Shown here piece after piece: positions 15,919 to 20,751 of a DNA stretch of 29,075 bases. Within the stretch, counting starts at the first letter, position 1. The number at the start of each line of letters is the position of its first letter. The notes under the pieces are model-generated. The model was not told the origin of the DNA. It made no database searches and worked only from the letters and a program-made list of their open reading frames with translations. The stretch is from IMG/VR virus record IMGVR_UViG_2541047746_000007. One strand, given 5' to 3'. This DNA is from a virus. Taxonomy: Duplodnaviria; Heunggongvirae; Uroviricota; Caudoviricetes. The translations under genes were made by a program, and so were the position numbers.

Positions 15919-15947
15919 TTGCATTTTTCAAAAAATATGGATAAAAT
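15919..15947 (+). promoter_or_regulatory. Candidate late promoter PR' (TTGCAT-17 nt-TAAAAT), probable qut region
   Basis: Promoter-like hexamers 32 nt downstream of the Q stop, followed about 50 nt later by an intrinsic terminator, as in lambda PR'-tR'. Confidence 0.45.
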
Positions 15948-15992
15948 TCTTTCAACGATGGGCTTTATATACCCGACGTTAAGAAAAAGTAG

Positions 15993-16017
15993 AAAACCCG
16001 CTGATGAGCGGGTTTTT
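15993..16017 (+). terminator. Rho-independent terminator (tR'-like)
   Basis: AAAA-CCCGCT-GATG-AGCGGG-TTTTT: 6-bp GC-rich stem, 4-nt loop, U-run. Confidence 0.7.
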
Positions 16018-16302
16018 GTGCTTTAAATAGGGTAATAGAGATGTTGAATCTCATTCCGGGATTCATGTTTGTTTACTTATTATTTATCGGGTGACTTTGC
16101 CTGATGTTTAAAATGTTTTCTTCCAGTGCTATGTCCCTAGATACAATGAGTCTGCATATTACATTATTAGCAGAGCTATTACGGTCAAAGTACAGCATAA
16201 GCTTTTAAAGCCAATCAACCAGTCATCAAGACAGACGGGGTTATTCATGAAAACTCTCCATGTTTGATTCGATGGGGCCTGAAATTAAAGCTTTAATATA
16301 GC

Positions 16303-16515
16303 TCATGAAAGGTAAACATTGGCAGCTGAAGGGCCACGCAGACCATTTATCCGGCAAAATTCCACGCGTAATCCGGTGGTAATTTCTTCTGCATCGCGGA
16401 GATTGAGCGCTGAAACATGAAGCTGGACATCGATACGACCATCGGATGGGGTGATAAGACCCTTGCCGCTTTTGCCGTCAAAGGTTTTGACAATTCCTGT
16501 CATTTTACGGGACAA
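16303..16515 (-). CDS. cspF: Cold-shock-domain protein, CspF/CspH-like
   Basis: 70 aa beginning [26 protein letters not shown] and ending [16 protein letters not shown] start with RBS AAGGAA. Divergent partner of the cspB-like gene. Confidence 0.75.
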
Positions 16516-16815
16516 AAAAATTCCTTAATACTGATAACTGGGCGCACTATACACACGTTCCTGAAGAAAGCTATAGTTTTTTGATGGGGTTGAAGATGGC
16601 TGGATGTCTAAAATAAACATTGCTTCATATGTTCAACTATGCGTTAATGATTGCGTCGGTTTGAAGAACAGACGATATACGAAGTAGTTTACTAAAGCAG
16701 TTCTCATTTCAGGTGTTATTCACTTATTCCTTCTTTGAGTCTCTCCAATTAAGTACGAAGTCGTTTCTGTTATACAAGCCATTTATGCCGAAAGGCTCAA
16801 GTTAAGGAATGTAGA

Positions 16816-17031
16816 ATGTCAAATAAAATGACTGGTTTAGTAAAATGGTTTAACGCTGATAAAGGTTTTGGCTTTATTTCTCCTGTTGATGGTAGTAAAG
16901 ATGTGTTTGTGCATTTTTCTGCGATTCAGAATGATAATTTTCGAACCTTATTTGAAGGTCAAAAGGTTACCTTCTCTGTAGAGAGTGGTGCTAAAGGTCC
17001 TGCAGCAGCAAATGTCATAATTACTGATTAA
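16816..17031 (+). CDS. cspB: Cold-shock protein, CspB-like
   Basis: 71 aa; [38 protein letters not shown] carries the RNP1/RNP2 motifs of CspA-family proteins. RBS AAGGAA. Confidence 0.8.
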
Positions 17032-17312
17032 AATTCATAGTTTGTCTGTATACGATAACGAAGAAGGCTGATGCCTGAGTGGAGATACAGACAGAGTGGT
17101 GAATATTGGATCTCTTTAATAAATAGTAAGGAGGTCCAATACATGAAACAATGGCCAGCATATTTGGCAATAACTTAATCAGGAAAAGTATGCTAACCAT
17201 TGTGGTGAAGTGCAGGTTTGCTGCATGAATAGTTTTACAGCAGAAGCTAACTGCTGGCATAGCAAAACAAAGTGCGTAAGTGGATGACTCCCACAAAAAG
17301 TACCACAATATT

Positions 17313-17337
17313 AAACCCGCTCAGGCGGGTTTTTTAT
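17313..17337 (+). terminator. Rho-independent terminator, possibly bidirectional
   Basis: AAA-CCCGC-TCAG-GCGGG-TTTTTT downstream of cspB, in the gap before the convergent minus-strand zinc-ribbon gene. Confidence 0.75.
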
Positions 17338-17394
17338 TATCTGCTTTAAATATGTTATTAAAATATAAAAAATACTTGTTACGAATAAAATCAA

Positions 17395-17565
17395 TCAAGC
17401 TACAGCTTTAAGATTTGTCTGGAATACTTTGTTGCAATGAGGGCAGATCAAAAGGGCACCTTTTTGTACTCTTGAAAAACTGTGTTCTGACTCTTGGGTG
17501 CAGTTTGGGCAGGAACATTTAACGAGATAATTACGGCGTGATTTTGAGTCTTTACGTTCTGACAT
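17395..17565 (-). CDS. Small zinc-ribbon protein (Cys4, Com-like architecture), function unknown
   Basis: ATG at 17565 with RBS AGGAAAA; 56 aa with CSCPNC...(18 residues)...CPHC. The track ORF (to 17616) is over-extended. Confidence 0.5.
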   Translation of the reverse strand: MSERKDSKSRRNYLVKCSCPNCTQESEHSFSRVQKGALLICPHCNKVFQTNLKAVA

Positions 17566-17783
17566 AGGCTTTTCCTGTATAAATGGCCGTATACAGTACA
17601 CTAAATATGAAAACATATCTCGTATTATTATTTAATATATGATTTTCTTTTAAAATAATTACCCACATTTTTAATGTGTCTGTTTTTTAGCGCCGTTGAG
17701 AACAACGTTTGCTATAAAAACTAACCCATAGACTCCGATCTTTTCAAACATATTGCACCATCTGTGTACATCGGGGTGAGGAT

Positions 17784-17999
17784 ATGAAATCAATGGATAA
17801 GTTAACAACAGGTATCGCCTATGGCACATCGGCTGGTAATGCTGGTTTCTGGGCATTGCAGTTACTCGATAAAGTAACTCCGTCACAGTGGGCTGCAATC
17901 GGTGTGCTGGGTAGTCTGGTTTTTGGCCTGCTGACGTATCTGACAAACCTTTATTTCAAGATTAAAGAAGACAGGCGTAAGGTTGCGAGAAGAGAGTAA
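17784..17999 (+). CDS. Class II holin (EssQ/EssD / phage-21 S-like), dual-start motif
   Basis: 71 aa; [26 protein letters not shown] with two predicted transmembrane segments and a charged C-terminal tail. M1-K-S-M4 dual start as in holin/antiholin pairs. RBS GGGGTGAGGA. Confidence 0.85.
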
Positions 18000-18003
18000 T
18001 CCA

Positions 18004-18555
18004 ATGACACAAGACTATGAACTGGTTGTGAAAGGAGTCCGCAATTTTGAGAATAAAGTGGCGGTAACTGTAGCCTTACGGGACAAAAAACGCTTTGACG
18101 GTGAAATTTTTGACCTGGACATCTCGCTGGACCGTGTTGAAGGTGCCGCGCTGGAGTTTTATGAGGCAGCAGCCAGAATGAGAATCAGACAGGTATTCCT
18201 GGATGTTGCTGCCGGGTTATGTGTAGGGGATGAGCAGTCGCCGGAAAAGCGCCCCATAATTTTAGAGGCGCAGAATGTGTGGATAACCTACAAAGGAAAG
18301 CTACCGGGAAGAATTACTGGTTCTCTGAAGACGCCACCGACGGCATTGCGGTCAGAAAAAGATGATATTGAATCGCCCATTGAAAAACTGGAGGGCAGCG
18401 TCGCTGATCTGAATAAAAAATTGTCGGTGCTGATCCCTTCTGAAGATGAAAAAAAACGCCGCGATGAGCAGTTTGCGGCGTTTTACGATTATTGCATTGA
18501 AGTTACTCGCAGGAATTTTGTGAAGATTTTTGAGGAGGGTAAATCTCTTCAGTAA
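18004..18555 (+). CDS. Hypothetical protein in the lysis cassette
   Basis: ATG at 18004 immediately after the holin stop; 183 aa, acidic and coiled-coil-like. Lies between holin and endolysin, where Qin carries ydfR as I recall. Confidence 0.5.
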   Translation: MTQDYELVVKGVRNFENKVAVTVALRDKKRFDGEIFDLDISLDRVEGAALEFYEAAARMRIRQVFLDVAAGLCVGDEQSPEKRPIILEAQNVWITYKGKLPGRITGSLKTPPTALRSEKDDIESPIEKLEGSVADLNKKLSVLIPSEDEKKRRDEQFAAFYDYCIEVTRRNFVKIFEEGKSLQ

Positions 18556-18763
18556 GCTTAATGGCGGACGCTGCAATTAATTCAGGAAGGTCCGCAAGGT
18601 CATCTGTCAGTGGATATGATGAAAAATCGGCGGCAGTTCTGTTAAGAAGCGCTTTAACTAATTCCTTTTCCTTCTCCGGCAACAAGTTGATTAGAGCTAC
18701 GACTGCTTGCCTGAGTGCGATTAAATCAGCAAAAGTTTGTTTTGGTAGATTTGTGTAATCCAT
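18503..18763 (-). CDS. Hypothetical acidic protein encoded antisense within the lysis cassette
   Basis: 86 aa from the ATG at 18763 with RBS GAGGTG. Helical-looking protein with atypical codon usage (GC3 about 40%). Its 3' end overlaps the upstream plus-strand gene by 53 nt. Confidence 0.35.
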   Translation of the reverse strand: MDYTNLPKQTFADLIALRQAVVALINLLPEKEKELVKALLNRTAADFSSYPLTDDLADLPELIAASAIKLTEEIYPPQKSSQNSCE

Positions 18764-18876
18764 AGTCACCTCTGTGTTTATCAGATTGACATCCTCCTCC
18801 CGCCAGTGCCCATCACTGGTGAGGTAAGATTTAACATATCCGGGGATTTGAAGCCGATAAATCCTGATAAATATCC

Positions 18877-20480: not shown

Positions 20481-20685
20481 GGTAGAAAATATTACAAACC
20501 ATATTCACTTTAGATGCCCGTGTTGCCATGGTTCTCAGTATAGAACATCATCTTTTGATGTTTCTGACAGAAATCCTTTCGGGGCAAAATGTATCTTTTG
20601 TAAATCAATGATGATTACATTTGATAATATTTCACAATACTTAAATGTTAGCCATCTGTCGTTAGATTTAAGAAAGTGAAAATGA

Positions 20686-20707
20686 AGGCTCCTTCGGGAG
20701 CTTTTTT
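20686..20707 (+). terminator. Rho-independent terminator downstream of cspI
   Basis: GGCTCC-TTCG-GGAGC followed by TTTTTT. Confidence 0.6.
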
Positions 20708-20751
20708 GCTTAGTGTCTAGTCGATGGATACTCACATATTACGGTAACATT

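Follow-up and report, generated by a model that had tools for sequence, protein, structure and literature searches.

The 56-codon open reading frame (ORF) at positions 17395–17565 is ynfU, a named gene for a small putative zinc-binding protein of the Qin-type prophage of Escherichia coli. It lies in the window, the whole 29,075-nt stretch of a Caudoviricetes virus record analyzed here (IMG/VR record IMGVR_UViG_2541047746_000007). The account that we favor, and that we consider probable, is that ynfU is an autonomous, translated and selected gene for a basic zinc-ribbon protein, that it belongs to a mobile cold-shock islet, and that it travels as prophage cargo. According to this account, an AT-rich cold-shock islet (cspF, cspB and ynfU, with cspI and ynfQ further on) would be cargo lodged between Q and the holin gene of a Qin-type prophage. 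The ynfU gene of the window would then lie outside the lambdoid lysis module, and the same ynfU–csp pair is also present at ordinary chromosomal sites in many Enterobacterales.

The gene itself is already known, having been named and experimentally detected since 2019. The Pfam model PF23499 (YnfU) matched the ORF at 2.5e-31 (107.7 bits, cutoff 27) over residues 1–49 of the 49-position model, and NCBIfam NF038384 matched it at 7.9e-23 (79.8 bits, cutoff 36). A 401-nt query spanning ynfU found matches in 1651 of 5426 complete E. coli genomes, and the PGAP label in all 1651 was “ynfU: putative zinc-binding protein YnfU”. The counterpart in K-12 MG1655 is b4776, flanked by essQ and cspB in the cryptic prophage Qin; the two proteins are identical at 55 of 56 residues, with D6N as the sole change. 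Over the ynfU stretch, the window is 100% identical to strains CFT073, S88 and APEC O1, and the gene order in the identical region of CFT073 is Q-like ydfT, cspF, cspB, ynfU, essQ, rrrQ, rzpQ, cspI, ynfQ, ynfN, gnsB. The initial annotation, made from the sequence alone, had described the ORF as unaccounted for by standard gene sets. That description fits phage resources: PHROGs has no family for YnfU and returned only marginal matches to families of unknown function, and ynfU is left unannotated in some phage records. It does not fit RefSeq K-12, Pfam or NCBIfam, all of which include the gene. The features on which the following sections draw are these:

17395–17565, minus strand: ynfU coding sequence, 56 aa, MSERKDSKSRRNYLVKCSCPNCTQESEHSFSRVQKGALLICPHCNKVFQTNLKAVA (ORF list, Pfam, NCBIfam, PGAP and K-12 match).
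17576–17573, minus strand: Shine-Dalgarno core AGGA, 7 nt 5' of the ynfU ATG (read from the sequence).
17566–17640, minus strand: conserved ynfU upstream cassette, ~75 nt (alignment of prophage and non-prophage upstream regions).
17313–17340, plus strand, with a weaker U-rich tail on the minus strand: GC-rich hairpin and T tract, the cspB terminator (terminator scan).
17149–17306, plus strand: conserved structured non-coding element, ~155 nt, four hairpins (nhmmer and alignments).
16655–17094, plus strand: cspB (coding sequence 16816–17031) with a cspA-type thermoregulator mRNA (Rfam RF01766, Pfam CSD).
16303–16515, minus strand: cspF, divergent from cspB and the third islet member (Pfam CSD, 5.6e-22; cspF in CFT073 and K-12).
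17784–17999, plus strand: essQ, a holin gene of P21 S type and the first lysis gene (Pfam PF04971, 7.3e-34).
20491–20679, plus strand: ynfQ, YmcF-like, 62 aa, ATT start (Pfam PF23641, 6.2e-34; K-12 b4724).

The signals around the ORF match the earlier description of a 56-aa reading frame with a good ribosome-binding site. The ATG of ynfU lies at 17565–17563 and its TGA stop at 17397–17395, and an alignment of upstream regions revealed that AGGA or GGAG is kept at the ribosome-binding position across 18 genera and phages. A longer 73-aa frame starting with an ATG at 17616 was ruled out, as the ATG of the 56-aa form is the start that fits the conserved ribosome-binding site, the Pfam model and the family alignment alike. 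The upstream cassette accompanies ynfU and is conserved in every context. Within it lie an invariant GTGTA..GT, a -10-like TACTGT (17598–17593) and an A-rich tract, and its conservation implies that ynfU has its own promoter, presumed to lie within 17566–17640, and a 5' untranslated region (UTR) of ~20 nt. A consensus promoter-scan match at 17654–17627 was set aside; it falls outside the conserved part of the upstream region. Neither an Rfam scan nor the upstream alignment revealed a cspA-type thermoregulator in the short ynfU 5' UTR. At the other end of the gene, the terminator hairpin (17313–17332) starts 62 nt past the ynfU stop and also forms in minus-strand RNA, so that 17313–17340 probably serves as a shared bidirectional terminator for the convergent cspB and ynfU. 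ynfU is thus a self-contained unit: a conserved cassette with the ribosome-binding site and the presumed promoter comes first, then the ORF, and finally the terminator that it shares with cspB.

Translation has been shown for the K-12 orthologue, which differs from the window protein at D6N. Ribo-RET, a form of ribosome profiling that captures initiation complexes in a stalled state, detected YnfU of K-12, and a chromosomal SPA tag verified it (Weaver et al. 2019, bioRxiv 10.1101/511675). None of the other small proteins new to that study was as abundant (bioRxiv 10.1101/511675), and a transposon-reporter screen, PIRT-seq, detected YnfU independently (PMC12350097). YnfU is well expressed at 37 °C, from a cryptic prophage (bioRxiv 10.1101/511675), and therefore is not strictly cold-induced. 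Selection on the gene is equally plain. Homologous copies were intact in 80 of 81 cases, and pairwise Nei-Gojobori estimates over a 44-codon ungapped core gave a median dN/dS of 0.10 across 759 pairs (mean dS 1.23). These two results indicate that the protein, and not the DNA alone, is under selection; ynfU is under purifying selection, far beyond what a chance ORF would show. The initial annotation had allowed that the ORF might be neither translated nor conserved. Ribo-RET, the SPA tag and PIRT-seq in K-12, together with an Enterobacterales-wide family, rule against this, and the proposal of a genuine, translated and conserved Cys4 zinc-ribbon mini-protein, with expression signals of its own and opposed to the late region of the prophage, was upheld.

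The YnfU family is small and confined to Enterobacterales, and an exhaustive profile search of 1.84 billion representatives returned only 41 cluster representatives at E up to 1e-3. Members occur in Escherichia, Shigella, Citrobacter, Klebsiella, Raoultella, Enterobacter, Kosakonia, Kluyvera, Lelliottia, Leclercia, Yokenella, Atlantibacter, Cronobacter, Franconibacter, Salmonella, Hafnia, Edwardsiella and Erwinia. In the 55 sequences aligned, the family core reads LVKCxCPxCSxxSEHSxSRVQKGxxLxCPxCxxLF, in which C19, P20, C22, S26, H28, S29, C41, P42 and C44 are either fully invariant or kept in at least 90% of members. Two CPxC knuckles stand ~18 residues apart with an SEHS..R.QK motif in between. 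Because C17 is missing in distant family members, the ligand set is CPxC...CPxC (C19, C22, C41 and C44). The Cys4 ribbon that had been read from the window (VKCSCPNC...CPHC) is therefore present, and its four ligands are invariant or nearly so across the 55 members. Family members are uniformly basic, with a median net charge of +7 and a pI of 9.7.

Structure prediction agrees with this pattern. An AF2 model built from the 55 diverse sequences reached a pLDDT of 74.9 overall and 81–86 in the core, with predicted strands at 14–18, 25–29, 38–40 and 47–49, a short helix at 30–35 and disordered tails; it was preferred to a first model built from 20 close sequences, which was dropped (pLDDT 59). 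With moderate confidence, the prediction shows a core that is a single four-stranded zinc ribbon, preceded by an N-terminal Arg/Lys tail that is predicted to be disordered. We infer zinc binding from the Cys4 pattern and the predicted fold; the literature searched yielded no metal analysis of the protein. The modeled fold would support the term “zinc ribbon” and nothing more specific. A Foldseek search of the PDB with the first, 20-sequence model returned nothing under E = 1, and profile matches to solved structures were marginal (Tim15, 0.03; L44e, 0.044; PA0128, 0.66). The Ribo-RET study had already pointed out both CPXC zinc knuckles, along with a threading match of moderate strength to PA0128 (bioRxiv 10.1101/511675). 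In our searches, the N-terminal zinc ribbon of PhnA/YjdM (PF08274) scored 22.4 bits against YnfU, under its gathering threshold of 30.8.

To ask which genes accompany ynfU, we surveyed 80 species-representative loci, whose outer flanks clustered into 32 distinct contexts. A cold-shock-domain (CSD) gene lies less than 1 kb from ynfU in 57 of the 80 loci, and an adjacent csp gene was found in 24 of the 32 flank contexts. With about nine csp genes to a genome of 4.6 Mb, chance adjacency of ynfU and a csp gene would be expected at ~0.5%. The csp gene is convergent with ynfU and directly downstream of it in 39 loci, and the full layout of the window (ynfU, a convergent csp and a divergent second csp) recurs in 26; a YmcF-like gene lies within 1 kb in 14. 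The neighbor is of the cold-inducible type: adjacent csp genes carried the cspA thermoregulator RF01766 above its gathering score in 17 of 18 genera sampled. Most ynfU copies lie between housekeeping genes and not in prophages: the Lelliottia locus lies between a liv transporter and pgsA/uvrC, and the Klebsiella locus likewise has housekeeping genes around it. Distant branches of the family keep the linkage as well: in Hafnia, the order is ynfU, DUF2058, CSD, and Edwardsiella has a CSD gene on both sides of ynfU. In phage PHB10, the neighbors of ynfU are cspB-like and cspF-like genes close to int and umuDC, well away from the lysis genes. Phages HannyBb, Tritos and 2H10 have an identical ynfU. 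Association thus places ynfU in the cold-shock islet, as judged by the 57 loci, the 24 flank clusters, Hafnia and Edwardsiella. The linkage is strong and not absolute, since csp-less members exist: 23 of the 80 loci have no csp neighbor within 1 kb, the Enterobacter, Erwinia and Citrobacter 57-aa branches have no csp near ynfU, and in a Klebsiella phage ynfU adjoins a holin gene without csp. Adjacency to YnaE was rejected as a general feature of ynfU; it was found in Lelliottia only.

Several further observations concern these loci. Contigs filed as Veillonella parvula (a MAG; L016), Vagococcus (L038), Kocuria (L052) and a Bacillota MAG (L054) bear an enterobacterial ynfU–csp pair with up to 100% identity to E. 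coli, and look like contamination or mis-binning of public assemblies. Near ynfU–csp islets, we also detected the STnc100 sRNA in Superficieibacter and C. amalonaticus (L044, 3740–3869; L094, 2969–3101) and a FourU thermometer in an Enterobacter (L074, 2717–2781).

What YnfU does can be proposed only tentatively. The proposal that we rank first, to which we give less than even weight, is that YnfU is a nucleic-acid-binding protein, with RNA or the ribosome as its most likely target, and acts with Csp chaperones at low temperature or in csp-inducing states. Binding would run through the basic tail and the conserved SEHSF.RVQKG face, and YnfU would share with the Csp RNA chaperones a role in RNA metabolism or translation, in the cold or in other states that induce csp genes. 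A link between ynfU and cold shock was not found in the literature searched, and the papers that mention ynfU (on silver nanoparticles, a hypomagnetic field, the pangenome and an Enterobacter prophage) gave no functional information. The csp linkage itself could have arisen because one ancestral module was transferred as a whole, or from a shared preference for common AT-rich islets, and not from joint function.

The same invariant SEHSF.RVQKG surface between the knuckles also suggests a specific partner, and YnfU might instead modulate a larger protein, for example as a DNL-type (Tim15/Zim17-like) escort of Hsp70, with no role in nucleic-acid binding. Most small proteins are expected to bind larger ones (Weaver et al., bioRxiv 10.1101/511675), and weak matches point in this direction, namely to Tim15 (E = 0.03, over C..C..S.H..S...KG..LI.CPHC) and to Pfam zf-DNL (E = 0.076). 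However, all matches of this kind are sub-threshold (13.4 bits against a cutoff of 27), and the csp linkage would be left unexplained. YnfU does not fall within the DNL zinc finger family (Tim15/Zim17, PF05180), as its score is below threshold and the DNL motif is not kept in the YnfU family. We therefore regard a purely protein-binding role as unlikely and retain the proposal of a nucleic-acid-binding partner of the Csp proteins.

A second alternative accepts the cargo status of ynfU and denies its tie to cold: ynfU would be a moron that benefits the host or excludes phages, and its adjacency to csp would be hitch-hiking in AT-rich islets. The islet is indeed AT-rich, ynfU is opposed to the late operon with a presumed promoter and a terminator of its own, its product is made at 37 °C from within a cryptic prophage, and some family members have no csp neighbor. 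But the csp linkage outlasts synonymous-site saturation, orientation changes and differences in CSD subtype across families of Enterobacterales, most copies sit amid housekeeping genes, and a PADLOC search gave no match. This alternative appears doubtful to us, to about the same degree as the previous one, and the cold-shock association remains our preferred basis for interpreting ynfU.

The initial annotation placed ynfU next to the lysis genes and implied a functional tie to lysis. The survey does not bear this out: only 11 of the 80 loci have lysis or Q genes at 4 kb or less from ynfU, against 57 with a CSD gene within 1 kb. Because holin and endolysin genes co-occur with it so inconsistently, ynfU does not qualify as an accessory gene of the lambdoid lysis cassette. 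It was seen next to lysis genes because the order Q, cspF, cspB, ynfU, essQ, rrrQ is fixed within E. coli-type prophages, and lysis-gene adjacency is specific to those prophages. A scan of IMG/VR yielded 80 E. coli prophage copies, all identical; these confirmed the local layout and added no diversity. The diverse alignment (A5) varied too much to serve as a seed for such a scan. The orientation that had been reported, opposite to both cspB and the lysis cassette, is correct in its first part, as ynfU converges on cspB (16816–17031, plus strand). It is not convergent with the lysis cassette: ynfU and essQ are divergent, head-to-head and 218 bp apart.

The islet in the window (15888–17783) has a GC content of 37.5%, compared with 47% for the whole window. 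Its cspB mRNA scored 156.5 bits against Rfam RF01766 (gathering score 78), and the cspB product matched Pfam CSD at 8.4e-32; within the window, RF01766 was found on cspB and cspI. Beyond the islet, the lysis cassette differs from that of K-12 Qin at one stretch, 17983–18769. Between the holin and lysozyme genes, a ydfR-like gene has become, by fusion or extension, a 190-aa ORF, an 88-aa reverse ORF lies at 18503–18769, also between holin and lysozyme, and the annotation of the CFT073 counterpart of 17983–18769 lists an incomplete YdfR and a hypothetical protein. Elsewhere in the window, at 7874–8062 (plus strand), adjacent Rfam matches mark the isrK Hfq-binding RNA (55 bits) and the C4 antisense RNA (83 bits), a pairing typical of the P1/P7-like or anti-Q type immunity region of lambdoid prophages.

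Because the Q gene ends at 15887, a Q-modified late transcript must cross the islet before it reaches essQ, and it follows from the layout that such transcripts would read ynfU antisense. One could suppose from this that the act of ynfU transcription is what matters, either because it limits how far transcripts from cspB or the late promoter run into the lysis genes, or because it yields antisense RNA to the cspB 3' element. The antiterminated transcript that crosses 15.9–17.8 kb on its way to essQ and the conserved element opposite the ynfU 3' end fit this idea; the low dN/dS, the invariant Cys ligands and SEHS motif, the accumulation of YnfU protein (Weaver et al., bioRxiv 10.1101/511675) and the location of most ynfU copies outside prophages do not. 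We consider a transcription-only role highly improbable and continue with ynfU as a gene that works through its protein.

The conserved element at 17149–17306 sits between the cspB stop and the terminator, opposite the 3' end of ynfU and antisense to the stretch just past the ynfU stop. An nhmmer search found it in 32 of 106 sources and in many genera, with an E value of 1.5e-34 in Edwardsiella; the K-12 copy is at NC_000913 1,641,064–1,641,221, on the minus strand. It always has the orientation of cspB, and G-U wobbles favor the cspB-sense strand, while covariation support is weak. We found no Rfam match for the element and no annotation of it in K-12 RefSeq, and a literature search found no description of a cspB 3' UTR sRNA. 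The element is a candidate 3' UTR-derived sRNA and thus a separate lead beside ynfU. Just upstream of it, at 17128–17179 (plus strand), a perfect Shine-Dalgarno sequence TAAGGAGGT precedes an 11-codon ORF (MKQWPAYLAIT, then a stop); this stretch is not conserved outside Escherichia.

The initial annotation had also reported a start-less paralogue of the ORF after cspI. This turned out to be ynfQ, a YmcF-like gene of a separate and unrelated Pfam family. Its translation begins (I)TNHIHFRCPCCHGSQYRTSSFDVSDRNPFGAKCIFCKSMM..., and it is the sole other CxxC...CxxC ORF near cspI. No ynfU paralogue was found within the window by tblastn or blastn, and hhalign of the YnfU and YnfQ family alignments gave a probability of 2.5%. 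ynfQ lacks an ATG, GTG or TTG because its annotated start is an ATT at 20491, 11 nt past the cspI stop and in the same orientation as cspI. The start position encodes Ile in most genera and is an ATG (Met) in one Atlantibacter locus. Next to ynfQ, the homologue of YnfR at 20682–20720 (plus strand) stops after 12 codons (MKAPSGAFLLSV, then a stop), and the YnfR homologue in CFT073 is flagged as a pseudogene, “too short”. In K-12, YnfR is a cold-shock-induced protein of 21 aa, MKAPSGAFLLGVYSMDTHILR (PMC6001520).

A fuller version of our proposal is correspondingly less secure. In it, YnfU would be a dedicated zinc-ribbon cold-shock cofactor that binds RNA or the ribosome and cooperates with cold-inducible Csp chaperones, and ynfU would form a mobile module with cspB and possibly with the 3' RNA at 17149–17306, exchanged between the chromosome and lambdoid prophages; we think it improbable that all these parts hold together. 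As a discovery, ynfU offers little that is new, because its annotation and its experimental detection came before this analysis. Neither the csp linkage nor the neighboring RNA element was found described in the literature searched, and both are modest additions and not a new kind of system. Their value is to redirect the functional question: ynfU is better approached as a companion of cold-inducible csp genes than as a regulator of lysis or a Com-like protein. YnfU is among the more abundant small proteins of E. coli that are still without a function.

The weakest alternative, that YnfU is an activator of Mu Com type that binds a stem-loop in a target mRNA (from the lysis genes or cspB) and opens its ribosome-binding site, draws on the shared traits of phage-encoded Cys4 zinc proteins of ~60 aa, on the basic character of YnfU and on the conserved structured RNA that adjoins ynfU on the other strand, and we dismiss it as the least probable of all, given the lack of sequence similarity, the co-transcription of com with mom, set against a ynfU that runs into a terminator and has no gene behind it, and a family whose members are mostly outside phages and away from lysis genes. 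The Com resemblance that had been suggested was accordingly not sustained: BLASTP against Mu Com gave E = 0.35 over 18 residues, no target gene lies downstream, and the Com family is absent among the Pfam matches listed for YnfU (E up to 0.29). YnfU shares neither sequence homology nor target-gene overlap with Com, and there is no positive support for the statement that it works like Com.

Among known systems, the closest to the window gene is K-12 YnfU itself, which has the same length, start, CPxC pairs and cspB–essQ position in a Qin-type prophage; nothing of substance differs. Compared with K-12 Qin, the window represents a more complete Qin-like prophage. The similarity to the zinc ribbons of PhnA/YjdM (PA0128, PDB 2AKL), LysW, eL42/L44e and Tim15 is sub-threshold, and YnfU shares no common context or extra domain with them. 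Mu Com (62 aa), the translational activator of mom, is like YnfU a small phage-encoded Cys4 zinc protein. However, com (769–957) overlaps its target mom (908–1603) within one operon; that operon logic is absent for ynfU, because ynfU is monocistronic and a terminator follows it, and cysteine spacing and context also differ. The lambda morons bor and lom are, like ynfU, independently transcribed cargo of the late region, opposite in orientation, AT-rich and expressed from the prophage, but YnfU is cytoplasmic and not an envelope protein, and most of its relatives are chromosomal. Finally, the YmcF-like proteins, including YnfQ (PF23641), are encoded downstream of cspG and cspI and resemble YnfU as small Cys4 proteins beside a cold-shock gene. 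YnfQ is co-transcribed after its csp gene and starts at an ATT, whereas ynfU has a presumed promoter of its own and usually converges on its csp neighbor.
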